From positions 1 through 64,000 of the IMG/VR virus record IMGVR_UViG_3300032323_000793: a DNA stretch of 64,000 nt, one strand, 5' to 3'. Source of the stretch: a virus. The position numbers and the translations under genes are program-made. This document shows, one piece after another, positions 4,152 through 42,197 of this stretch; within the stretch, counting starts at the first letter, position 1; every line of letters starts with the position of its first letter. Under the pieces are notes generated by a model, which saw only the letters and a program-made list of their open reading frames with translations, made no database searches and was not told the origin of the DNA.

Positions 4152-6644
4152 ATGGCAGTAACATGGATCACTCCAGCAGGCGATCTTACAAACGGTGTAC
4201 CTATCACAGAAAGAAATATTCTAAATATACCACTTTCTGCGACTTCAACGACTGGAAATATCACGTATTCAGTTATAGCAGGTCAACTACCTAGAGGACT
4301 AAGATTAGAAGCATCTACTGGTAGGATCTTAGGCAGTGCTACAGAAGTAAGAAATTATACAGTAAACAGGTTTGTAGTTCGTGCCAGCGACAGTATTGAT
4401 ATCGAAGATCGCACATTTAGTCTTGCTGTAGACGGATCTGATATTCCACGATGGGTAACTAAAGAAGGTTTCCTGCAAGTTGGTAATGGCGAAAACTATT
4501 TTGTTTTAGATAATGCCTATGTAGAATTTCATTTGTCTGCATTAGATTCAGATGTAGTTGCTGGAGATAATTTAGAATTTTATTTGGTATCTAGTGGAGG
4601 AGAATTGCCTCCAGGCCTATCTCTTAGCAAAGATGGAACAATTTCTGGTTTCACAGATCCTATATTTGCTTTAGAAAATATTACATCTCCAACTGGTGCA
4701 TTCGACACCAATGGATATGACATTACTTATTTTGATAGACCCGAAGCAAGAACCAACGGATTTGACACTTATCTTTACGACGGAGTTACTTTTGATTACA
4801 ACGAGCCTAGTCGTGGTCCAAGACGTCTTAGTAAATTTTATACATTTATTGTAGCAGTCAGCGATGGCATTAACGAAGTACGTAGAATATTTAGAATCTG
4901 GGTAGTCACAGAAGAATTCTTACAAGCAGATAACAGCATTGTTCAAGTAGACACTAATCTATTTCGTTCAGATAACACTGGTGATAGAGTTCCGTTATGG
5001 ATCACTCCTAGTTATTTAGGCAGACGTAGAGCAGATAATTATCTTACAATATTTTTAGATGTTTACGATCCACCCAGTTTAACTGGTGTGATAACTTATT
5101 TCTTGTTAGCCACTAACCCCGATGCTACTCCCAGTTTGTTACCTCCAGGACTAGTTTTAGATACTATTACCGGCGAACTAGCAGGTCGCGTTCCTTATCA
5201 GAATGCTGTAACTAAGACCTACAAGTTTACTATGCAGGCTATAGATTTTCCTGCAGCATTAGGAAACATATCCTATACATTTGTGGGAGATTGGAATTCT
5301 TCTAGAACTTATTTTTCCAACGAGGCTGTAAAGTATCAAGATTCAATTTATATATGTTTGAAAGAAAACAGAAATGTAATTCCAGATGACGGAGCAGTTT
5401 GGGATAAAGCCACAGCCACTGCAGAAAAAACCTTTACTATAGATATCATTGGCGAAATTGAAAGTGCTATCGAATGGGTTTCTGATAGCGATCGAGGATC
5501 TATACGTCCTAATCAACCAAGTTCGTTGTTTGTAGAAGCACGAAGTTTATATTATGGTGGCAAGGTTGTTTATGAATTAAGTTCAGGTACATTGCCTCCA
5601 GGCTTAAATCTTTTATCAACTGGTATTATACAAGGTAAAGTTAAACAATTTGCAGACGATGCTGGCCCTGGAATTATTCGTTTTTATGAACGAGTTGATA
5701 GTTTAGGTCCAGGAGAAGACAGTTCTTCTCTTTCTAAAGATTATACTGCTACTTTTGACAGCGGTTCTACTACTTTTGATCGTAAGTTTGATTTTGCTAT
5801 AAAGGCCAGAGACACTGCTAATTTTGCTGAAAACATCAAATCATTTCATATTACCATAGATACAGAAGTACAAAAATCTTTCGCCAATCTCTATGTTAAG
5901 GCTTTCCAAGAAAAACAAAAACGATTAGAATGGTACGATTTTATCACTAACAGTAATATTTTCCGCAACGATGAAATATATCGTTATGGAGATCCTAACT
6001 TTGGAATACAGCCTGAAATTAAGATATTGGTATTTGCAGGTATTGAAAGTCTCGAGGCTGTAAATTATGTTCAGGCTATGAGCAGAAATCATTATCGCAA
6101 ACAAATTAGATTTGGCGATATTAAATCAGCCGTGGCAAAAGATCCTATAACACAGGAAATTATTTACGAAGTTGTTTATGTAGATATTGTAGACGAATAT
6201 GAAAAAAATGGAAAAAGTATATCGCAGACTGTAAATCTTCCAGATAATATCAACAGCAGAGTATTAGTCAGTTATGATGCTATTAAGATAGACAGCGATA
6301 TACCATTGGTCAGCGATCGAGATCATCAACGAGTTTTTCCTAACAGTTTCAAGAATATGAGAAAACGTATTAAATCGCTAGGAGACAGAGATCGAACATT
6401 TTTACCGCTTTGGATGAGATCTATACAGCCAGATGCATTTGTAGAAACTGGTTATGTGAAATCTCTAGTACTGTGTTATCTCAAACCTGGTTTTAGCGAG
6501 GCTGTTATATCCAGAATTAAAAGCAATAATTTTGATTTCAAAAAAATCAATTTTACCATAGACAGATATGTAATAGATATTTTAGACGGACAAATAGAGG
6601 ATAAATACCTTGCATTTCCGCAACGTGGAGAAAAATTACCGTGA
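4152..6644 (+). CDS. Putative Ig-repeat baseplate/virion structural protein
   Basis: Repeated G.LP.GL.L...G.I.G putative-Ig motifs; strong AAGGAG RBS; structural context. Confidence 0.7.
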   Translation: MAVTWITPAGDLTNGVPITERNILNIPLSATSTTGNITYSVIAGQLPRGLRLEASTGRILGSATEVRNYTVNRFVVRASDSIDIEDRTFSLAVDGSDIPRWVTKEGFLQVGNGENYFVLDNAYVEFHLSALDSDVVAGDNLEFYLVSSGGELPPGLSLSKDGTISGFTDPIFALENITSPTGAFDTNGYDITYFDRPEARTNGFDTYLYDGVTFDYNEPSRGPRRLSKFYTFIVAVSDGINEVRRIFRIWVVTEEFLQADNSIVQVDTNLFRSDNTGDRVPLWITPSYLGRRRADNYLTIFLDVYDPPSLTGVITYFLLATNPDATPSLLPPGLVLDTITGELAGRVPYQNAVTKTYKFTMQAIDFPAALGNISYTFVGDWNSSRTYFSNEAVKYQDSIYICLKENRNVIPDDGAVWDKATATAEKTFTIDIIGEIESAIEWVSDSDRGSIRPNQPSSLFVEARSLYYGGKVVYELSSGTLPPGLNLLSTGIIQGKVKQFADDAGPGIIRFYERVDSLGPGEDSSSLSKDYTATFDSGSTTFDRKFDFAIKARDTANFAENIKSFHITIDTEVQKSFANLYVKAFQEKQKRLEWYDFITNSNIFRNDEIYRYGDPNFGIQPEIKILVFAGIESLEAVNYVQAMSRNHYRKQIRFGDIKSAVAKDPITQEIIYEVVYVDIVDEYEKNGKSISQTVNLPDNINSRVLVSYDAIKIDSDIPLVSDRDHQRVFPNSFKNMRKRIKSLGDRDRTFLPLWMRSIQPDAFVETGYVKSLVLCYLKPGFSEAVISRIKSNNFDFKKINFTIDRYVIDILDGQIEDKYLAFPQRGEKLP

Positions 6645-7240
6645 GCAACATTAATTATTTGGGCATAAATGAAAACTTCCCTGTAGCAGGTGAAGACAAT
6701 GATACACAGGTTTTCCGTGATAACTTTGACACGATCAAAACCAGTTTACAAACTGCTAAAGACGAAATCACTGATCTAGAAGCCAATGCGGCTAGATTGG
6801 ATATCGACAACGACTTTAATAGAACTATTATCAGTCGTGCAGTTATGCAAGACAACTTTGAAAGAAAATATGACCACGGTGTTACTGAAACACCTGTAAT
6901 AGTAGACTTTGAAAACGGTAGTTATCAAATTTTTAGATTTAATGCAAACACATCTGTAGAATTTCAAAATTTTCCAGACAGTAATACTTTACCGATCAGT
7001 GTTGGAAAAGTAACTTTAGAATTATATGGCTCAATAGATCCATTTACTAATCTTGGAAGAACAATTACATTTGTTACAAGTGGCGGCACAGTACTGAAAA
7101 AGAATTCCTCGTTTCCCGATCCTTTAGTTTTAACAAGTCAAGAATTGGCAGCAGGTGGCGGCAATCCTATTATCGTAGAAGTTTGGCGCCATAAATCCGA
7201 TAGGATTTTTCTAAATTACATTGGACAATTCTCGTCATAA
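6641..7240 (+). CDS. Virion structural protein (baseplate/tail associated)
   Basis: FPVAGEDNDTQVFRDNF N-terminus plus coiled coil; GTG start; GATAAATA box at 6600-6607. Confidence 0.5.
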   Translation: MSNINYLGINENFPVAGEDNDTQVFRDNFDTIKTSLQTAKDEITDLEANAARLDIDNDFNRTIISRAVMQDNFERKYDHGVTETPVIVDFENGSYQIFRFNANTSVEFQNFPDSNTLPISVGKVTLELYGSIDPFTNLGRTITFVTSGGTVLKKNSSFPDPLVLTSQELAAGGGNPIIVEVWRHKSDRIFLNYIGQFSS

Positions 7241-7241
7241 A

Positions 7242-7478
7242 ATGATTCACCCGTTTGCCGAAGATCTTTCAGCATTGAAAGAAAACGAATTGGAAGAAAA
7301 AGTCCAAGAATTGACTAGAAAATATTACCAAGCATCACGTCTGGGCAAGCCAGAACTGTTGACACAGATCGCAACTTTTGTTACAATATACAAAGACGAA
7401 TTATCTAAAAGATATCGTGAACGTACACAAGCAGAACTTGACGGCGATTTGGATCAACTGATTAATGTTAACAAATAA
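7242..7478 (+). CDS. Hypothetical coiled-coil protein
   Basis: ATG at 7242 directly after the previous stop; co-linear operon. Confidence 0.55.
   Translation: MIHPFAEDLSALKENELEEKVQELTRKYYQASRLGKPELLTQIATFVTIYKDELSKRYRERTQAELDGDLDQLINVNK
7359..7387 (+). promoter_or_regulatory. Sigma70-type promoter upstream of the mini-dnaE gene
   Basis: TTGACA (7359-64), 17-nt spacer, TACAAT (7382-87), with an extended TG. Confidence 0.7.
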
Positions 7479-7929
7479 CTTAAAAGATTTAACAGAAGCA
7501 ATAATGATACATGGTCCGGACATATTGTCCGACTGTGTAATTTCTGATGAGTTTAAACAGTATATGCAACGCATAGACGATGAGAGATTAGATTATCCAA
7601 TTCCTATGCCAAGTATAGATACAAATCATTGGTTTATTCCTCGAGAATATCAAGATCTTGATATAGAAAATTGGGTACGTGATCAATGCAAAGATATTAA
7701 AGCGCAAGATAGAGTAGAAGAAGAATTAAGACTATATCGCCAAAATAATATGATTCCTGTGCTAAAAACTATGAAATATATTGTAGATACTCTTAGAGCC
7801 AATAACGTAGTTTGGGGTGTAGGACGTGGTAGTAGTGTAGCCAGTTATGTTCTCCATGTTATAGGGGTCCATAAGATCGACAGCGTTAAATACAATATAC
7901 CAATAGAAGAGTTCTTCAAGGAGAAATAA
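7465..7929 (+). CDS. DNA polymerase III alpha (DnaE)-like fragment lacking the catalytic PDIDxD motif
   Basis: RVEEEL...LRANNVVWGVGRGSSVASYVLHVIGVHKIDSVKYNIPIEEFF matches the DnaE GPGRGSAAGSLVAY.LGIT.IDP..Y.L.FERF segment. Confidence 0.75.
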   Translation: MLTNNLKDLTEAIMIHGPDILSDCVISDEFKQYMQRIDDERLDYPIPMPSIDTNHWFIPREYQDLDIENWVRDQCKDIKAQDRVEEELRLYRQNNMIPVLKTMKYIVDTLRANNVVWGVGRGSSVASYVLHVIGVHKIDSVKYNIPIEEFFKEK

Positions 7930-7930
7930 A

Positions 7931-8161
7931 ATGGGTAGAACATATACCAGTATGCAGGGAAAATCAATTGACATGGACAAACTGTCATTGAGAAACGAAC
8001 TTACACCTGCTGTAGGAAACATGAAAGTTAATGCACGGGGAGATGAACTAGGTCCTGGCGGCCAGATCATCAGAACTAAAGAACAGATCATGCAAGATTA
8101 TTATAAAAATAATCCTAGAGCAGTTAGAGAAGAAATTGCTACAAGAGGAAACAAGAAATAA
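7931..8161 (+). CDS. Hypothetical protein
   Basis: AAGGAG RBS; TAATG overlap with the next gene. Confidence 0.6.
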   Translation: MGRTYTSMQGKSIDMDKLSLRNELTPAVGNMKVNARGDELGPGGQIIRTKEQIMQDYYKNNPRAVREEIATRGNKK

Positions 8162-8517
8162 TGGCATTTTACGATACTCAAAATATCAAAATACGTGCTA
8201 TACATGATCACGTGATTGTAACTGGAATGAATTTTTCAGAAAGAAAAACAGCCAGTGGTATTATCTTACGCAGTGACAATGGTAAGAGTCACGGAATTAG
8301 ACCTAGGTGGGGACAGGTTTATAAAATTGGACCTGAACAAAAAGATGTTGAAATCGGCCAATGGATTCTAATCGAACACGGTCGTTGGACTAGAAAAATT
8401 AGAATCAATGACGGTGAAGGCGAAAAAGACATTTGGCGAGTAGATGCTAAAGGTATTCTTGCGATATCAGAAACAGCCCCCACTGCTGAGGACGATGTCA
8501 TTGTAGATAGTGTATAA
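8161..8517 (+). CDS. groES: GroES-like co-chaperonin
   Basis: IRAIHDHVIV, ERKTASGIIL, G.V.KIGP, V.IG..IL, ILA pattern of Cpn10. Confidence 0.8.
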   Translation: MAFYDTQNIKIRAIHDHVIVTGMNFSERKTASGIILRSDNGKSHGIRPRWGQVYKIGPEQKDVEIGQWILIEHGRWTRKIRINDGEGEKDIWRVDAKGILAISETAPTAEDDVIVDSV

Positions 8518-8756
8518 TGGGCCTTAAGAAGAACTGGAACACAGCAGACATCGCTAATCAAATTAGCGCACTAGGTCGTGAGTGTTCCAGTCCTTACAAT
8601 GATGGCTTTACTGCTTTCGAATTTAAAAAAGATCTTTATCAGATCAAATCCATAATAGACCACGCACTCGACAAGGCTCCAAATTTTGGCGATTTGGAGC
8701 AACAGTGGTTGACAGAACAAGAACAAAAGCGTATCATTAAGATTCTAAAGTCTTAA
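8517..8756 (+). CDS. Hypothetical protein
   Basis: Translationally coupled by TAATG. Confidence 0.55.
   Translation: MGLKKNWNTADIANQISALGRECSSPYNDGFTAFEFKKDLYQIKSIIDHALDKAPNFGDLEQQWLTEQEQKRIIKILKS
8709..8737 (+). promoter_or_regulatory. Sigma70-type promoter upstream of the MazG-like gene
   Basis: TTGACA, 17-nt spacer, TATCAT. Confidence 0.65.
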
Positions 8757-8765
8757 GGAGATACA

Positions 8766-9176
8766 ATGACTAATCCCTTTCGCGACCAAGCGAAATTTAT
8801 GGCTGCCTGCGATCAATCTGCAGGCGGAGAGTTTGACCAAGCACAATTTAAAATGTACTTAGGTCTAATTCAAGAAGAATTTAAAGAATTACAAGTTGCT
8901 GTTGATAACAATGATCAACTCGAAACCCTTGATGCTCTTATTGATATCTTAGTTGTTACTATTGGTACTATTCATTCTATGGGCGCAGACGCCGAAGGTG
9001 CATGGAAAGAAGTTATGCGTACTAACTTTGCTAAGATTGACAAAGACACTGGCAAGGTTCGTAAGCGTGAAGATGGCAAAGTTCTTAAACCGTTAGGGTG
9101 GACTGCCCCTGATTTAAAACCGTATCTCTATCAAGAGAGAGAAAAAAATTTACTTAATCAAGGTTACGAACAATGA
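8766..9176 (+). CDS. MazG-like / PRA-PH family NTP pyrophosphohydrolase
   Basis: LIQEEFKEL...ETLDALIDILVV...EVMRTNFAK...KREDGKVLKP.GW..PDL. Confidence 0.8.
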   Translation: MTNPFRDQAKFMAACDQSAGGEFDQAQFKMYLGLIQEEFKELQVAVDNNDQLETLDALIDILVVTIGTIHSMGADAEGAWKEVMRTNFAKIDKDTGKVRKREDGKVLKPLGWTAPDLKPYLYQEREKNLLNQGYEQ

Positions 9177-9922
9177 CTGTGAATGTTTATTGGACAAGAT
9201 CAAATCCAGGTTGGGAAGATCTAGAAAAGTTAGGATTTCCCACCAGTACATACATGAGTCCTATGAGGATCGAAGAACCCGAACCTCTCACTAAACATCT
9301 AGATTATAAAAACTTCTTTGGTCCTTTAGTTAGTAAGTGCCCTGCAATAATAGATGATCTTAAAAATACTTTTGTGATAAAAAGTCCTGTTGATGTAACC
9401 TTATACATAGAAAACAATTCTTTTAAGGTCGATCATCAGGAATTAGACTTTGCTCAATCGTTCCTAGGAGAACCGCAAGGAAAATTTGGTATACATCAAT
9501 TATCTTTTTGTTATAACTTTTTTAGTGAAAAAAGTTTGATGCTTACACAATTGCCTGCATTTTACGACAGCAACAGTTTTACAAACAATACATTTTCAAT
9601 ATCTGGAAGTTTTGATATCGGACGTTGGTATCGTCCATCAGGAAAACCTGCGTTTATTATTAGGCCCGACTCAAAGAAAATAACTATCAAACAGGGCGAT
9701 GCATTGCTATATGTAAAATTTAATACACAAGATAAAATTAAACTAATTGAATTTGATGACCGTGAGTTTTTAGCAATGAAAGAGCGCAGTCCGGAATGGG
9801 TTTGCGGTACATTAAAAAGACACACTAACAGCATTTTAAGTTTGGCTAAATGTTATGATCTGTTTGATCAATACAAAATGCGCAGACGTATCTTAAAAAC
9901 TATAAAGAAAAATACAATATGA
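9173..9922 (+). CDS. Conserved-type phage hypothetical protein
   Basis: 249-aa ORF coupled by ATGA at both ends; CPA..D...N.F.IKSP and G.FDIG.W.RP motifs. Confidence 0.6.
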   Translation: MTVNVYWTRSNPGWEDLEKLGFPTSTYMSPMRIEEPEPLTKHLDYKNFFGPLVSKCPAIIDDLKNTFVIKSPVDVTLYIENNSFKVDHQELDFAQSFLGEPQGKFGIHQLSFCYNFFSEKSLMLTQLPAFYDSNSFTNNTFSISGSFDIGRWYRPSGKPAFIIRPDSKKITIKQGDALLYVKFNTQDKIKLIEFDDREFLAMKERSPEWVCGTLKRHTNSILSLAKCYDLFDQYKMRRRILKTIKKNTI

Positions 9923-10353
9923 AAATTGGTTTTACATGTTCAACCTTTGACCTGTTTCATGCTGGGCATATTATGATGCTCAAAGAAGCAAAAACAAAAT
10001 GCGATCATTTGATCGTAGGACTACAAACTGATCCCACAATTGATCGTCCGGGAATTAAAAATAAACCAGTTCAAAGTGTATTTGAACGATACGAGCAACT
10101 CAAAGCCTGCAAGTACATTGACGAAATCCTCGTCTATGAAACGGAGGCAGACCTTGTAAATATCTTGCTTTCTTATCCTATTAATGTTAGAATACTAGGA
10201 CAGGAATACGAACACGAAGATTTTACAGGCAGATATGAGTGCATGGATCGCGGTATTGAGTTTTATTTTAACAAACGTGAGCATAACTTTTCAACCAGCG
10301 AGTTACGCCAACGTGTAATTGCCGCTGAAATTAACAAAGGGCTAAAACAATGA
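9919..10353 (+). CDS. Glycerol-3-phosphate cytidylyltransferase-like (TagD-like)
   Basis: FDLFHAGH (HxGH), LIVGLQTD, ER, R...FSTSELR. Confidence 0.8.
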   Translation: MKIGFTCSTFDLFHAGHIMMLKEAKTKCDHLIVGLQTDPTIDRPGIKNKPVQSVFERYEQLKACKYIDEILVYETEADLVNILLSYPINVRILGQEYEHEDFTGRYECMDRGIEFYFNKREHNFSTSELRQRVIAAEINKGLKQ

Positions 10354-11270
10354 AAGAACTATGGGTAGAAAAATATAGACCTAAAAAACTAGACGAATAT
10401 GTTTGGCGGGATGAAGAACAGAAAAAACAAGTGCAGACATGGATTAAAGAAAAAAGCATTCCGCATCTATTGTTAAGTGGAACACCAGGCATTGGCAAAA
10501 CTACAATGGCTAAAATGCTGATTAACGAGATTGGTATCGAGGGATATGATGTTTTAGAGATTAATGCATCTAGAGAACGTGGTCTAGATTTAATGAAGGA
10601 AAGAATTACTAACTTTGTTAGCATGATCCCATTTGGTCCATTCAAAGTAGTACTACTAGACGAAGCAGATCGACTTACTCCATTCGCACAAGATGCTTTA
10701 AAAGGTGTCATGGAAGAATATAGCAACTTTAGCAGATTTATCTTAACCTGTAATACACCTAGTATGATTGTTCCTGCAATTCATAGTCGATGCCAACAGT
10801 TTCACTTTACTAAATTAGATCCTGTAGAATTTACTGCTAGGGCCGCAACTATTCTAGTAGAAGAATGTATAGAGTTTGATCTTGAAATATTAGATACCTA
10901 TGTTAAGTCAACATATCCGGATCTGAGAAAATGCATAAATCTATTACAACAAAATACTAGAGAAAACAAATTGTTTATGCCTAATCAAAGTGACACTGGC
11001 ACATTAGAGTGGAAGTTTGATATGGTAGAATTGTTTAAAGCAGGCAAGATTCAAGAGGCTAGAAAATTACTATGCGGTAAAGTACAAGCAGATGAAATCA
11101 TTCAGATTTATAGATGGATGTACGATAACTTAGAAGTGTTTGGTAACAATGATGTGCAAGATAAAGCCATCATGATTATTAAACAAGGAATAATAGATCA
11201 TCCAATCTGTGCTGATCCAGAAATTAATCTAAGTGCTACACTGATCAGGTTGTCTAAACTGAATGGCTAA
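10350..11270 (+). CDS. Sliding-clamp loader AAA+ subunit (gp44/RFC-like)
   Basis: WVEKYRP, GTPGIGKT (Walker A), LLDEAD (Walker B), SRC motif. Confidence 0.9.
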   Translation: MKELWVEKYRPKKLDEYVWRDEEQKKQVQTWIKEKSIPHLLLSGTPGIGKTTMAKMLINEIGIEGYDVLEINASRERGLDLMKERITNFVSMIPFGPFKVVLLDEADRLTPFAQDALKGVMEEYSNFSRFILTCNTPSMIVPAIHSRCQQFHFTKLDPVEFTARAATILVEECIEFDLEILDTYVKSTYPDLRKCINLLQQNTRENKLFMPNQSDTGTLEWKFDMVELFKAGKIQEARKLLCGKVQADEIIQIYRWMYDNLEVFGNNDVQDKAIMIIKQGIIDHPICADPEINLSATLIRLSKLNG

Positions 11271-11763
11271 GAAATCCAATGTTGCCAAGGGTCAAAATAG
11301 TTACGACTCAAAAGTAGGAGATAATCTTGTTGCATTTTTTAATAAAAATGTAACTCCCTATCCTACCGAAGTAGGAGGACCGGCATTTGATCTTATTCCC
11401 GTTGAAAAACAAAAAGACATTATGGTCAATGTTGCTCGTATGCACGGACAACAGGAATATAATCGTATTATGGAACTAGTAGCAGTATTACAAAAACAGG
11501 CTGCTAGTGTAAAACGAAGACTAGAAATAACTGATCTTGTACATGCCGCAAAATATCAATTCCAAACATATCACGGTCAAGTTTATTGGTTAGCCTACGA
11601 TACGTGGAAAGGCGGCACTATATTAACTATGCACGGCCCCGACGACTGGAGTAGTAGTGCTCCTGATTGGTATGATTATATTTGCCGTGTGAAATGGTTA
11701 GGGGACTATACATGGATAGAAGTAGATGCAGAAGGTAACCCCTTAGATGAAACAAAAATTTAA
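11263..11763 (+). CDS. Hypothetical protein (DUF2452-like)
   Basis: YPTEVGGPAF motif, coiled coil, G.VY.L and D.TW C-terminus. Confidence 0.5.
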   Translation: MAKKSNVAKGQNSYDSKVGDNLVAFFNKNVTPYPTEVGGPAFDLIPVEKQKDIMVNVARMHGQQEYNRIMELVAVLQKQAASVKRRLEITDLVHAAKYQFQTYHGQVYWLAYDTWKGGTILTMHGPDDWSSSAPDWYDYICRVKWLGDYTWIEVDAEGNPLDETKI

Positions 11764-12259
11764 ACAAGCGTACATGAAAACTGCAGAAATATTTGCAGAA
11801 CTCAGTCATGCACGTAGATTGCACGTTGGTGCTATTGTTGTTAAAGACGATAGAATTATTAGTATTGGCTATAATGGCATGCCTAGTGGTTGGGACAACA
11901 ACTGTGAAGATCGAGAATACATGACTGATGCTGGCGGTTGGCTAAGTCCTGAAGAGATTTACGAACAGTGGCCATATGTTGAATATAATGAAGACGCCGA
12001 AGAAGAGTATAGATATCGATTAAAAACTAAACCAGAGGTATTACATGCTGAGACAAACGCAATTGCCAAACTGGCTAAATCCAATGAGAGTGGCGATGGG
12101 GCTGTACTCTTTGTTACTCATGCTCCTTGCTTGGATTGTGCCAAACTCGTCTACCAGTCTGGACTTAATACTGTTTTCTATCGGAATTCTTATCGGGACG
12201 ATTCTGGAATACTATTCCTCAAAAAAGCAGGAATAACAGTGGAGAAATTAGATGAATGA
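11747..12259 (+). CDS. dCMP deaminase
   Basis: VGAIVVKD.RIISIGYNG.P.G, HAETNAI, PCLDC zinc motifs. Confidence 0.9.
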   Translation: MKQKFKQAYMKTAEIFAELSHARRLHVGAIVVKDDRIISIGYNGMPSGWDNNCEDREYMTDAGGWLSPEEIYEQWPYVEYNEDAEEEYRYRLKTKPEVLHAETNAIAKLAKSNESGDGAVLFVTHAPCLDCAKLVYQSGLNTVFYRNSYRDDSGILFLKKAGITVEKLDE

Positions 12260-18487: not shown

Positions 18488-18971
18488 TCTAGGATTACAT
18501 TCAAGTTTACAACAGATCAGCGATCCTTGGGACTTTGCATCGGACGGCGATGCAGAAAAAATAGAACACGACATGTGTTACTTTATGATGAAGCACATGG
18601 GTATAGGTTTAGCGGCTAATCAAATTGGATTAACAAAACAAGTATTTGTTATGGGTAGCGAAAACATTCCCGGTTTTCCAAAACCATTTGCTGTCTTTAA
18701 TCCCAAGATAATATCTTCGAGTGACGATACAGAATTATTCAAAGAAGGCTGTTTGAGTTTTCCAGGACTATGGTTGAATATTAAAAGACCTAAAAAGATT
18801 TTAGTTGAATATCAAAACAGTCGAGGAGATATTATAGAAGCAGAAATGGATGGTCTAGTGGCCAGATGTTTTCAACATGAATTTGATCATCTCATTGGCA
18901 CATGTTTTGTTGACATAGTAAGTCCTATGAAGTTACAATTAGCAATGCAGAAATTAAGGAAACAAAAATAA
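18477..18971 (+). CDS. def: Peptide deformylase
   Basis: [15 protein letters not shown] and QHEFDH are all intact. Confidence 0.92.
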
Positions 18972-27676: not shown

Positions 27677-27710
27677 AAAAAAGCCAGTCCTTAGTTGACT
27701 GGCTTTTTTT
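27677..27710. terminator. Bidirectional Rho-independent terminator
   Basis: AAAAAAGCCAGTC-CTTAGTT-GACTGGCTTTTTTT. Confidence 0.8.
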
Positions 27711-27723
27711 ATGACTATATAAT
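27695..27723 (+). promoter_or_regulatory. Sigma70-type promoter of the replication block
   Basis: TTGACT, 17-nt spacer, TATAAT. Confidence 0.75.
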
Positions 27724-28371: not shown

Positions 28372-31041
28372 TTGAGTTACGTTGACGCATTCTATGATCG
28401 CGACGATGACATGATTCGTGTCGTTGAGCGTGATGACAAAGGCAATAGGAATTATAAAGACTATCCTGCCAAACATTTATTCTATTATTACGACCCTAGA
28501 GGAAAGTATCAGTCTATCAAAGGCGAACCTCTAAGTCGAGTTCTATGTAAAAATATTAAAGAACTCCGTAAAGAATTAGCAATTCATTCCAACAAAAAAC
28601 TTTACGAATCTGATATCAATCCCATCTATCGATGTTTAGAAGATCATTATCTGAATGTTGATGCTCCAAAACTAAATGTAGCATTTTTCGATATTGAAGT
28701 AGACTTTGATCCAGAGCGTGGTTATGCATCACCAGACGATGCATTTATGCCTATTACCGCTATTGCTGTTCATTTGCAGTGGATGGACACATTAGTCTGT
28801 CTAGCGATTCCTCCAAAAACTATGAGCATGGCTGAGGCTAAAAAAGCCGTGGAAGAATTTCCCAATACCATGTTATTCGATAATGAAGCAGAGATGTTAG
28901 ATAACTTCTTGCATCTCATCGAAGATGCAGACGTATTGAGTGGTTGGAATTCAGAAGGTTTCGATATCCCTTATACTGTCAATCGTGTCACAAAAGTATT
29001 AAGCAAGGAAGATACCAAACGCTTTTGTTTATGGAATTGCTATCCTAAGAAACGTGAATATGAAAAATTTGGAAAGACTGCTGTTACTTACGATCTTGTT
29101 GGTAGAGTTCACCTAGATAGTCTCGAAATGTATAGAAAATATACCTATGAAGAACGTCACACTTATAGACTAGATGCTATTGGTGAGATGGAGATCGGCG
29201 AGAACAAAACTGTCTACGAAGGCACACTGGATCAATTGTATAACAATGACTTCCGCAAGTTTATTGAATACAACAGACAAGACTGTGCTCTATTAAACAA
29301 GTTAGATCAAAAATTAAAATTTCTAGACCTTTCCAATAAACTAGCACACGACTGTACTGTTTTGTTACAGACTACTATGGGTGCTGTAGCAGTTACAGAA
29401 CAAGCCATTATCAATGAGGCACATCGAAGAGGAATGATCGTTCCTAATCGTAAAAAGATGGAAGAACATGGCGATACACAGGCGGCTGGTGCGTATGTTG
29501 CCTATCCTAAGAAAGGTATCCATGAATGGATCGGTTCGCTAGATATCAACTCACTGTATCCTTCAGCAATTCGTGCATTGAATATGGGTCCTGAAACTAT
29601 TGTAGGACAACTGCGCCAAGATGGTACTAAAGATTATATTGCAGCAGAAATGGCCAAGGGCAAATCTTTTGCTAGTGCATGGGAAGGTATATTTGGTTCA
29701 TTAGAATATACTGCTGTAATGAATAAAGAAGTAGGTAGAGAAATTACCATAGACTGGGAAGATGGTGGCAGTGATACACTCAGTGCTGCACAGATATATG
29801 ATTTAATCTTTGATAGCAATCAACCTTGGATGCTATCAGCCAATGGCACTATCTTTACCTATGACAAAGAAGGTATCATTCCTGGACTTTTAGCACGGTG
29901 GTATAAAGAACGTAAAGAGATGCAGGCCAAACTTAAAGAATGTATCACTGCTGGAAATAAGATTGAAGAAGAATATTGGGACAAGCGCCAGTTAGTTAAA
30001 AAGATTAACTTGAACAGTTTGTATGGTGCTATTCTTAATCCCGGCTGTAGATTCTTTGATAATAGAATTGGTCAGTCCACAACTCTTACTGGTAGAGCCA
30101 TTGCTCGTCACATGGCAAGTAAAGTGAATGAGATTGTTACTGGAGAATACGATCATGTAGGTAAATCCATTATCTACGGTGATACAGACTCATGTTATTT
30201 TTCAGCATTCTCAACTCTGAAGAAAGAAATTGAAAAAGGTACATTACCTTGGACCAAAGAATCAGTAATCGAACTTTATGATACTATAGGAGAAGAAGTA
30301 AATGGCACGTTTGTTAAGTTCATGCAAGACGCCTTCCATACACCCAAAACTCGAGGAGAGGTCATCAAGGCAGGTCGCGAGATTGTTGCAAGCAAAGGAC
30401 TATTCATCACCAAAAAGCGATATGCAGTCCTCTATTACGACAAAGAAGGAAAACGTACCGATATTGGTGGTAAAGCGGGAAAGATAAAGGCCATGGGATT
30501 AGATCTTAAAAGATCTGATACTCCAGTAGCCATTCAAGACTTTTTAAGTGAAGTTCTTGAGATGGTACTAAAAGGTTCGCAAAAAGAAGATGTACTAGAA
30601 TACATTACTGGATTCCGTACCGAGTTTAAAACTAGACCAGGTTGGGAGAAAGGTAGTCCAAAACGTGCTAATAAAATCTCAGAGTATCGAGATAAAGAAA
30701 AGAAAGCAGGCAAGACTAATATGCCCGGACACGTTCGTGCTAGCCTTAATTGGAATACTTTAAAGCGTATGATGGATGACAAATACTCAATGAGTATTGT
30801 TGACGGAGCCAAAGTTATTGTCTGTAAACTCAAAGATAATCCTATGGCATATACATCCGTAGCATATCCTGTTGACGAACTTAGACTTCCTCAATGGTTC
30901 AAAGATCTTCCATTTGACGATGCTGAAATGGAAACTACAGTCATCGATGAAAAACTTGAAAACCTTATTGGTGTTTTGGAATGGGACATCAGTAGCACAA
31001 GGTCAGATAACACATTCAGTAAACTATTTGATTTTGAGTAA
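28372..31041 (+). CDS. Family B DNA polymerase (gp43-like)
   Basis: Exo DIEVD, GWNSEGFDIPY, YNRQD; Pol SLDINSLYPS, KKINLNSLYG, YGDTDS, KKRY; C-terminal FSKLFDFE clamp-binding-like tail; TTG start. Confidence 0.95.
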   Translation: MSYVDAFYDRDDDMIRVVERDDKGNRNYKDYPAKHLFYYYDPRGKYQSIKGEPLSRVLCKNIKELRKELAIHSNKKLYESDINPIYRCLEDHYLNVDAPKLNVAFFDIEVDFDPERGYASPDDAFMPITAIAVHLQWMDTLVCLAIPPKTMSMAEAKKAVEEFPNTMLFDNEAEMLDNFLHLIEDADVLSGWNSEGFDIPYTVNRVTKVLSKEDTKRFCLWNCYPKKREYEKFGKTAVTYDLVGRVHLDSLEMYRKYTYEERHTYRLDAIGEMEIGENKTVYEGTLDQLYNNDFRKFIEYNRQDCALLNKLDQKLKFLDLSNKLAHDCTVLLQTTMGAVAVTEQAIINEAHRRGMIVPNRKKMEEHGDTQAAGAYVAYPKKGIHEWIGSLDINSLYPSAIRALNMGPETIVGQLRQDGTKDYIAAEMAKGKSFASAWEGIFGSLEYTAVMNKEVGREITIDWEDGGSDTLSAAQIYDLIFDSNQPWMLSANGTIFTYDKEGIIPGLLARWYKERKEMQAKLKECITAGNKIEEEYWDKRQLVKKINLNSLYGAILNPGCRFFDNRIGQSTTLTGRAIARHMASKVNEIVTGEYDHVGKSIIYGDTDSCYFSAFSTLKKEIEKGTLPWTKESVIELYDTIGEEVNGTFVKFMQDAFHTPKTRGEVIKAGREIVASKGLFITKKRYAVLYYDKEGKRTDIGGKAGKIKAMGLDLKRSDTPVAIQDFLSEVLEMVLKGSQKEDVLEYITGFRTEFKTRPGWEKGSPKRANKISEYRDKEKKAGKTNMPGHVRASLNWNTLKRMMDDKYSMSIVDGAKVIVCKLKDNPMAYTSVAYPVDELRLPQWFKDLPFDDAEMETTVIDEKLENLIGVLEWDISSTRSDNTFSKLFDFE

Positions 31042-41994: not shown

Positions 41995-42197
41995 AAAGAT
42001 GGATTTTAGATGTTGAAGAAGATCCTAAAACTGGAGATTCTGTTCTTAAATTTCCAGAAGATCTTTTAAAAGAAATAAATTGGAAAGAGGGGGATCATAT
42101 CCATTGGATAGATCTAGGTGATGGTAGTTATCAATTGGTCAAAGAAGAGTTGACAACTTTCGTAAAAAGTGGTATAATAAAGAATGAGCAAAATTAA
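41991..42197 (+). CDS. AbrB/MazE-like DNA-binding protein
   Basis: L.FP.DLL....WKEGD.I.W.....G...L.K. Confidence 0.55.
   Translation: MKRWILDVEEDPKTGDSVLKFPEDLLKEINWKEGDHIHWIDLGDGSYQLVKEELTTFVKSGIIKNEQN
42150..42178 (+). promoter_or_regulatory. Perfect sigma70 promoter immediately before queE
   Basis: TTGACA, 17-nt spacer, TATAAT. Confidence 0.8.

Follow-up and report, generated by a model that had tools for sequence, protein, structure and literature searches.

A 154-residue phage protein is probably the N-terminal unit of a split, minimal DNA polymerase III alpha

The window analysed here is a stretch of 64,000 nucleotides (nt), positions 1 to 64,000 of the IMG/VR virus record IMGVR_UViG_3300032323_000793, and forms part of a 95,394-bp contig that is 27% complete. 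It carries an open reading frame (ORF) for a protein of 154 residues that resembles the catalytic subunit of bacterial DNA polymerase III (Pol III alpha, DnaE), which we refer to as the N half. A first reading made from the letters alone (the sequence-only reading) had noticed that this ORF contains the GRGS nucleotide-binding segment of DnaE and stops right before the position where the catalytic PDIDxD motif should follow, and this was borne out: the GS motif strand and the E-E-F-F-K-E-K end are both in place (Table 1). The same reading had seen no continuation of the protein in other frames; indeed, no DnaE-type D-x-D-x-D motif is present in the open frames of at least 50 residues on the contig. 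The 154-residue chain itself has neither D-x-D nor K-x-D, and thus no catalytic carboxylates.

Profile and fold comparisons both back the proposed homology to DnaE. The sole Pfam match of the protein was PF07733, the Pol III alpha catalytic domain (E 1.9e-11; 44.6 bits at a cut-off of 23.9), and no PHP domain was found. This match spans profile positions 14-96 of 260, that is, the first third of the catalytic domain only, and there is no second PF07733 match anywhere in the 95,394-bp contig. The PHROG profile phrog_11127 (171 positions) matched the N half with an E-value of 1.2e-39 and through its last position. With HMMER, residues 107-151 were aligned to residues 410-454 of Taq Pol III alpha; the chain ends at the approximate equivalent of Taq residue 457, some 6-9 residues ahead of the Taq PDIDTDF motif (462-468). 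Its end lies three residues past EEFF and about five residues short of the DnaE catalytic aspartates. Profiles were required for this identification: phmmer with the N half alone against the PDB returned a weak match (E 0.26).

The AlphaFold model of the N half, built from the alignment, had a model-confidence score (pLDDT) of 80. Its residues 50-154, the counterpart of the N-terminal part of the large palm subdomain, were superimposed on residues 275-395 of E. coli alpha (Z 8.3-9.1, ~102 residues) and on residues 304-415 of M. tuberculosis DnaE1 (Z 11.0, root-mean-square deviation (rmsd) 2.5 Å, 96 residues aligned). In the structural re-alignment the top 13 rows were all C-family polymerases and the next row had a Z score of 2.7; Foldseek alone gave a weak E-value (0.14). 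Residues 1-49, modelled as three short helices, form an extension that has no DnaE counterpart and is lineage-specific. Compared with the palm of E. coli alpha (271-393), the phage protein shares the fold, the R-G-S motif and a helix ending in the equivalent of F-E-R-F-L. It differs in having the 49-residue helical extension instead of a PHP domain, in stopping before D401/D403, and in its C-terminal segment, where the invariant glutamate E149 occupies the position of R390.

A chain of 154 residues compared with ~1160 in DnaE could be the decaying remnant of a captured bacterial dnaE, and the genome paper on phage CBB did describe its homologue as 'truncated' (PMC5259590). Decay should, however, leave frameshifts and variable ends, and the homologues show neither. 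All 58 IMG/VR relatives (154-173 residues) end 0-5 residues past the final E-F-F, and the median ratio of nonsynonymous to synonymous substitutions (dN/dS) was 0.23 (range 0.03-0.44; 453 unsaturated pairs). When 1.84 billion cluster representatives were searched with a profile, 232 clusters (50% identity) matched at E 1e-30 or better. Among the best 150 of these 232 representatives, 144 were 140-200 residues long, 149 carried G-R-G-S, and 143 contained the tripeptide E-[FY]-[FLIMV], 120 of them ending 1-3 residues past the last one. The GS motif is invariant in an alignment of 33 N halves. Those of phages 121Q, MIJ3 (a PA5oct-like phage) and Atu_ph07, although only 31-35% identical to the protein in the window, end at the same column with E-F-L-(K/E) and at most one residue beyond, so that the break point is identical from the Rak2-like phages to Atu_ph07. 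In addition, the gene is tightly coupled to both of its neighbours and its promoter is conserved (see below). The length and dN/dS comparisons suggested by the sequence-only reading, which had judged that the gene does not look like decay, therefore gave one shared truncation point and a signature of purifying selection. On this comparative evidence the gene is maintained, and we regard the remnant explanation as hardly credible. A megablast comparison of positions 6000-12000 with the phage collection returned nothing, and so the phage has no close cultured relative.

Where, then, are the catalytic aspartates? One suggestion of the sequence-only reading was a naturally split C-family polymerase, with a partner gene beginning near (P)DIDxD elsewhere in the genome. 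This holds for related genomes, whereas the partner was not seen on the 27%-complete contig of the window. When three complete jumbo phage genomes were scanned with PF17657 (Pol III finger) at a lax threshold, small genes of 121Q and Atu_ph07 gave weak, sub-threshold matches. The 121Q protein, gp16 (212 residues), has D-I-D-I-D-F near its N-terminus, followed by K-V-D-I-L, R-P-G-K and F-K-K-P-H-A-Y-A-Y. With this C half as query, 96 records of the phage collection were matched, compared with 95 for the N half, and the host-genus tallies of the two sets were near-identical. In G001, an IMG/VR contig of 353 kb that is 98% complete and has an N half sharing 62% identity with that of the window, the partner is encoded by one gene (L070:1516-2094) for 192 residues beginning with M-P-D-I-D-I-D-F. 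More than 546 IMG/VR stretches encode relatives of this partner. The start is exactly MPDIDIDF in 70 of 81 proteins and MDIDIDF, MNLPDVDIDF or MSQPDIDIDF in the rest, and all are 188-195 residues long; their invariant residues include D3, D5, D7, K66, D68, R135, P136, Y162, F164, K165 and H168. Pfam gave no match with the G001 partner, and PF17657 stayed below threshold in the partner proteins and had no match in the window's contig.

Both halves are present in six cultured-phage records (121Q, MIJ3, Atu_ph07, SCTP-2, XaC1 and Slickus01) and on five large IMG/VR contigs of the window's clade (including G001, G007 and G008), where they lie 167-186 kb apart. Every genome that was searched for both, i.e. 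the six cultured phages and the one 98%-complete contig, proved to contain both. Across genomes the distance between the halves is 11-186 kb, and the partner lies downstream of the N half where the strand was readable (G001 and one more contig). At the short end of this range is the Alishewanella phage vB_AspM_Slickus01 (OQ508957.1), which at 141.6 kb is below the usual jumbo size: its half genes, at 68346-68957 and 79799-80029 (L152 / L153), are ~11 kb apart, both annotated as hypothetical, and the C half is located between a clamp loader gene and a primase/helicase gene. In Atu_ph07 the partner gp074 (NC_042013.1; L011:2805-3299, minus strand) is annotated with 164 residues and an M-L-K-D-K-E start and thus lacks the catalytic D-x-D strand; both the tblastn match and a 192-residue open frame reach upstream of this start, which has probably been placed too far downstream.

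A fused form joining both halves was not found among the longer homologues of either half, although such a blank is weak evidence. Six singleton longer proteins (P0003-P0008, from ENA metagenome gene calls) were considered as natural fusions and rejected, as they look like assembly or gene-calling chimeras in which a piece of one half is joined to ribonucleotide reductase, DHBP synthase, LytB, a Na/H exchanger or DnaQ+PHP. Four of them match the N half and combine PF07733 with unrelated Pfam domains (judged by domain combination alone); of the two that match the partner, one contains only its C-terminal part, and in the other just the final ~30 residues of the partner are attached to a DnaQ-PHP protein.

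The partner could be placed on DnaE in the same way as the N half. Its profile gave nine matches in the PDB at E-values up to 10, and all nine were Pol III alpha (best: M. tuberculosis DnaE1, E 0.0042). The matches are colinear in three pieces: residues 1-13 correspond to MPDIDIDFDDRRR, residues 55-137 to K-M-D-F-L-G...R-P-G, and residues 160-174 to Y-A-F-N-K-S-H-A-A-G-Y. The AlphaFold model built from the partner alignment had a pLDDT of 89, and its residues 1-190 were superimposed on residues 401-784 of E. coli alpha (Z 8.6, rmsd 3.9, 184 residues aligned) and on residues 971-1296 of PolC (Z 9.0). The top 15 rows of the structural re-alignment were all C-family polymerases, the next row having a Z score of 3.5; Foldseek alone again gave a weak E-value (1.4e-3). 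The ~190 residues of the partner thus span E. coli residues 401-784 and nothing beyond. Its aspartates align to D401, D403 and D555, and it has K-x-D, R-P-G and Y-x-F-x-x-x-H as well. Since the two halves map to E. coli residues 275-395 and 401-784, the break falls between residues 395 and 400.

In E. coli Pol III the large-palm region 271-393 is rigid on DNA binding, and the next part, with D401/D403, moves (bioRxiv 10.64898/2026.06.29.735100). By this alignment, the phage split coincides with the rigid/mobile boundary, or hinge, of the E. coli palm. The same study assigned the contacts of the active site: R362, G363 and S364 on strand P-beta-1 contact the deoxynucleoside triphosphate (dNTP) at its sugar and at its beta and gamma phosphates, the R362A variant being dead; D401 and D403 lie on P-beta-2; K553 and D555 touch the primer end; R639, P640 and G641 touch the templating base; and Y754, F756, N757 and H760 belong to the nucleotide-binding loop (bioRxiv 10.64898/2026.06.29.735100). 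All of these GS, catalytic, primer, template and nucleotide-loop residues have conserved counterparts in the two phage proteins. Taken together, the sequence comparisons identify the N half, with high confidence, as the N-terminal unit of a split minimal Pol III alpha.

The sequence-only reading had further proposed modelling the two parts as a complex. We predicted the complex of the cognate G001 pair with our own alignments in three runs and compared it with three controls. The ipSAE interface scores were 0.92, 0.91 and 0.92 for the pair and 0.10 for the best control. At this ipSAE mark the tool recovers 58 of 80 solved complexes and accepts 2 of 110 mismatched pairs, counts that are only a rough guide for predictions with own alignments. 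The three runs agreed in at least 97% of contacts, and the pLDDT of the partner was at least 91. The most confident contacts of the model include those of W118-G119 of the N half, at the start of the GS strand, with residues 6-8 of the partner, i.e. the D-I-D-I-D-F strand; residues 146-150 contact partner residues 166-167 in the K-S-H loop; and the N-terminal 49 residues lie against partner residues 5-26. The modelled packing of the two chains equals the intramolecular packing of intact DnaE. For this very reason the good score may reflect likeness to solved structures of intact DnaE and is not proof of binding. With moderate confidence, the models suggest that the two proteins form a heterodimer.

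The C-terminal N-I-P-I-E-E-F-F of the N half also resembles the clamp-binding (PIP-box) pattern Q-x-x-I-x-x-F-F. We discounted this idea, since the homologous segment of DnaE is the buried helix L-L-F-E-R-F-L and the complex model places the phage segment at the partner interface.

The promoter that the sequence-only reading had seen ahead of the gene is present (Table 1) and embedded in an upstream ORF for 85 residues. By count alone, an 11/12 match is not above chance: the contig has five sites of at least 11/12 on the plus strand and none on the minus strand, with ~3.4 per strand expected from shuffled sequences. The promoter is nevertheless real, because it is conserved in relatives with its synonymous sites unchanged. 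It is kept in 44 of 44 distinct relatives, in most of them 106 nt before the ATG, and 43 of the 44 have TACAAT or TATAAT as their -10 hexamer. TTGACA is invariant even though it spans a Leu and a Thr codon, while the preceding Leu codon varies freely (CTG, CTC, CTA, TTG and others), a pattern that indicates selection at the nucleotide level. In 121Q, MIJ3 and Atu_ph07 there is no site of at least 10/12 within 400 nt upstream of the N half, and therefore the promoter is specific to the lineage of the window. The partner gene has no conserved sigma-70 site (sites of at least 11/12 at 7 of 67 loci, in scattered positions) and no T4-late-type TATAAATA beside it. Four further sigma-70 matches in the window are listed in Table 1; the one at 8709, inside an ORF just upstream of the MazG-like gene, resembles the embedded promoter of the N half.

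A conserved host-type promoter for the N half, none found next to the partner, and a protein without catalytic carboxylates on a 27%-complete contig where the partner was not seen would fit a 154-residue protein that acts alone. It would then be a non-catalytic factor, for instance one that inhibits the host Pol III, as the sequence-only reading had considered, or serves as a decoy for it, or a nucleotide-binding module, and the PDIDIDF gene would be incidental. But the two halves co-occur in all six cultured phages and in the 98%-complete contig searched for both, the break point is the same from the Rak2-like phages to Atu_ph07, and the conserved surface of the N half (GS strand and C-terminal helix) is the one modelled against the partner. 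Moreover, half a beta-sheet is unlikely to be stable alone. Given the regular co-occurrence and the predicted shared sheet, we consider independent action of the N half very unlikely.

As the sequence-only reading had stated, the gene following the N half has its own ribosome-binding site (RBS) and the phage already has a family B polymerase (Table 1). This following gene, for 76 residues, starts between -7 and +3 nt from the stop of the N half in 20 of 20 relatives. Its product has no Pfam match and contains the highly conserved core P-A-V-G-N..V-N-A-R-G-D-E-L-G..G-G-K-I-V-R-T-R-E-Q. In 121Q, MIJ3 and Atu_ph07 a small gene (~113-134 residues), matched by size and position, is found at the same place. 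From this arrangement, the 76-residue protein may be an accessory component or subunit of the mini-polymerase. The order of N half, small abutting gene, GroES-like gene and, further on, clamp loader is common to this lineage, 121Q, MIJ3 and Atu_ph07; in the window, the GroES-like and MazG-like genes lie between the N half and the clamp loader. The partner in turn adjoins primase/helicase genes in 121Q, in Atu_ph07 and in Slickus01. Each half thus appears in a replication gene neighbourhood, which favours a role linked to the replisome without defining it.

Table 1 Features of the N-half locus and related genes and promoter matches in the window
Feature	Position	Strand	Evidence and remarks
Upstream ORF, 85 residues	7221-7478		contains the promoter
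Sigma-70-type promoter, TTGACA-17-TACAAT, TG-extended -10	7359..7387	+	11/12 match; 106 nt ahead of ATG
N-half coding sequence, predicted N-terminal (NTP-binding) unit of split minimal Pol III alpha	7465..7929	+	ATG start, 154 residues
GS motif strand G-V-G-R-G-S-S (residues 118-124)	7816..7836	+	equivalent to E. coli R362 G363 S364
C-terminal E-E-F-F-K-E-K and stop, conserved break point	7906..7929	+	~E. coli alpha residue 395
Gene for 76 residues abutting the N half	7931..8161	+	ATG at 7931; RBS AAGGAG at 7918-7923; phrog_14844 (E 9.2e-14)
GroES/gp31-like co-chaperonin gene	8161-8517	+	PF00166 (E 6.7e-6); phrog_931
ORF containing the sigma-70 match at 8709	8517-8756		just upstream of the MazG-like gene
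Further sigma-70 matches (11-12 of 12)	8709-8737; 18910-18939; 27695-27723; 42150-42178	+	
MazG-like nucleotide pyrophosphohydrolase gene	8766-9176	+	PF01503 (E 5.2e-10); phrog_671 (E 8e-38)
RFC/gp44-like clamp loader ORF	10350-11270		position matches clamp loader genes of 121Q, MIJ3 and Atu_ph07
Family B polymerase ORF	28372-31041		PF00136 (E 1.3e-35) at 29389-30606

A split minimal Pol III alpha was predicted computationally by Iyer et al. 2021 (Viruses 13:63, PMC7824862) in group 2.2 jumbo phages (Rak2-like phages, Atu_ph07 and others). These authors noted that it accompanies a family B polymerase, suggested that it serves one-strand synthesis or repair, and took it to represent the ancestral state of the enzyme in model form (PMC7824862). 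Our literature search found no experimental or biochemical study of the split enzyme, later work being limited to the 2021 paper, and nothing specific to the half genes in PA5oct transcriptomics. The arrangement in this lineage agrees with the published one (PMC7824862, PHROG 11127): a stand-alone small palm protein with the GS motif, a family B polymerase and T4-like clamp loader alongside, and, in relatives of the window, a Mg- and template-binding unit in a distant gene. Three features of the group 2.2 N unit, namely a GS protein of ~150-200 residues matching the first third of PF07733, a conserved end before D-x-D, and a family B polymerase with T4-like replisome genes, were found in the window. 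The window adds an uncultured lineage, whose protein has 154 residues compared with 169-177 in 121Q, MIJ3 and Atu_ph07, whose halves are 167-186 kb apart compared with ~31 kb in 121Q, and which alone among these has the sigma-70 consensus promoter within the upstream gene.

Two better-known systems are useful for comparison. In cyanobacteria the C-family catalytic subunit is made from two distant genes, the intein-split DnaE-n and DnaE-c. The phage halves differ in lacking an intein, in being interrupted in the palm sheet rather than in the fingers, and in their total of ~345 residues compared with ~1200. As the N half ends right after EEFF and the partner starts at MPDIDIDF, there is no room for an intein; no splicing can occur, and the two chains would have to act as a non-covalent heterodimer. 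In B. subtilis, DnaE is a second C-family enzyme beside PolC, with a proposed role in primer extension; it is full-length, consists of one chain and binds the clamp. The resemblance is a functional analogy only: in both cases a second C-family enzyme without PHP exonuclease stands, or in the phage would stand, beside the main polymerase, which in the phage is of family B.

We propose that the ORF encodes the N-terminal unit of a two-protein, ~345-residue minimal Pol III alpha/DnaE core, probably a second polymerase of the phage. The N half, transcribed in this lineage from the conserved host-type sigma-70 promoter within the upstream gene, would supply the large palm's rigid N-terminal region together with the R-G-S strand, to which the incoming nucleotide binds. 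The separate ~190-residue MPDIDIDF protein would supply the aspartates, the strand with K-x-D, the template contact R-P-G and the nucleotide loop Y-x-F-x-x-x-H. On docking, the GS strand would pair with the D-x-D strand and complete a Pol-beta-like sheet with one active site. The heterodimer would then most likely extend a template-bound primer by deoxynucleoside monophosphates and so be a second polymerase next to the family B replicase. It would probably be distributive, because PHP, most of the thumb and index finger, and any clamp-binding or OB domain are missing; its role might be primer extension or repair.

Several observations weigh against this proposal. First, the pairing in this phage is extrapolated from relatives whose N halves are 49-79% identical, as the partner was not found on the 95,394-bp contig, either with the 121Q partner as query or by a scan of open frames of at least 50 residues for D-x-D-x-D plus RPG/KSH motifs. 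The sequence-only reading had proposed a search for an ORF with DIDxD and KxDxL; in these frames the sole D-x-D-x-D match, in a 594-residue frame (92962-94743), is unrelated and lacks DnaE context. This absence carries no weight, since only 27% of the genome is covered and the distance of 167-186 kb expected for the partner would put it past the contig end. Second, with no conserved promoter found at the partner gene, co-expression of the halves is not assured. Third, the counterpart of R390 is an invariant Glu in every lineage checked, and the R390A exchange lowers the catalytic efficiency of the E. coli enzyme 27-fold (bioRxiv 10.64898/2026.06.29.735100). Fourth, the partner has ~24 residues between R-P-A and Y-x-F, compared with ~113 in E. 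coli, where the segment between R-P-G and Y-x-F holds R709, K714 and K715 of the closing index finger (bioRxiv 10.64898/2026.06.29.735100). The thumb region is reduced from ~130 residues in E. coli to ~40 in the partner; the beta-hairpin is kept, and its k-H-n-T-G strand aligns weakly to the thumb strand I-G-T-F-G of Taq. Finally, in contrast to other C-family polymerases, the GS motif and the three catalytic aspartates do not stand in one chain (in relatives, the aspartates are on the second protein), and full thumb and fingers, including the helical thumb, as well as the PHP, clamp-binding/HhH and OB-fold domains are absent from both halves. Useful template-directed DNA synthesis is therefore not assured, and we regard the chances that the heterodimer is an active DNA polymerase, as judged from these alignments, as evenly balanced.

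The exchange of R390 for an invariant Glu, the lack of PHP, clamp-binding and OB domains, and the presence of a complete family B polymerase and clamp loader would also be compatible with halves that assemble into a nucleotidyltransferase of the Pol-beta fold that serves some other purpose, such as tailing without a template, synthesis of primer-like products, or the production or modification of a nucleotide, while the family B enzyme does all DNA synthesis. Yet the partner invariantly keeps R-P-(G/A) and Y-x-F-x-x-x-H, which contact the templating base and the nascent pair, as well as the K-x-D that touches the primer end, and it retains the strand weakly aligned to the first, minor-groove-binding beta-strand of the thumb (k-H-n-T-G in the partner, I-G-T-F-G in Taq). 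The location of the partner beside primase/helicase in the Rak2-like phages, Atu_ph07 and Slickus01, and of the N half beside the clamp loader, also points to replication. We therefore consider a nucleotidyltransferase of this kind unlikely, and prefer the two-protein Pol III alpha core acting as a second polymerase.

More tentatively, and with considerable doubt, we can imagine a further step: the ~345-residue assembly would be an active template-directed polymerase and the smallest C-family core known, its split would be used for control, and it might have a third subunit. The N half would be made from a host sigma-70 (early-type) promoter and the C half in another transcription unit without such a promoter, so that an active site would form only on expression of both units, perhaps for a primer-extension or repair step that is handed to the family B replicase. 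The abutting protein of 72-78 residues could replace the missing thumb or clamp contact as the third subunit.

While the split arrangement as such has been known as a computational prediction since 2021 and the gene in the window extends it to an uncultured lineage, the present analysis adds the following points: the break is located to the residue and coincides with the palm hinge; R390 is invariantly replaced by Glu; the index finger and thumb are reduced to the extent given above; the break is uniform over more than 150 clusters; no fused forms were found among longer homologues; the complex was modelled with controls; the lineage has a conserved promoter within a coding region; and Slickus01 has both halves only ~11 kb apart. 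For annotation, this means that the half genes should be annotated as a pair and not be mistaken for a truncated or decayed dnaE; their present labels in public records are 'hypothetical protein', 'DNA polymerase' or 'DNA polymerase III alpha subunit'.

If the enzyme is active, the smallest core with which the bacterial replicase family can work would consist of the palm and a thumb/finger stub, without PHP, clamp-binding and OB domains, and would offer a compact system for studying nucleotide and template binding in C-family polymerases. The finding also bears on the origin of the C family, for which Iyer et al. 2021 proposed the split enzyme as a model of the ancestral state (PMC7824862). 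An active enzyme would, finally, raise the question what large phages gain from a second polymerase in two pieces when their family B replisome is complete.

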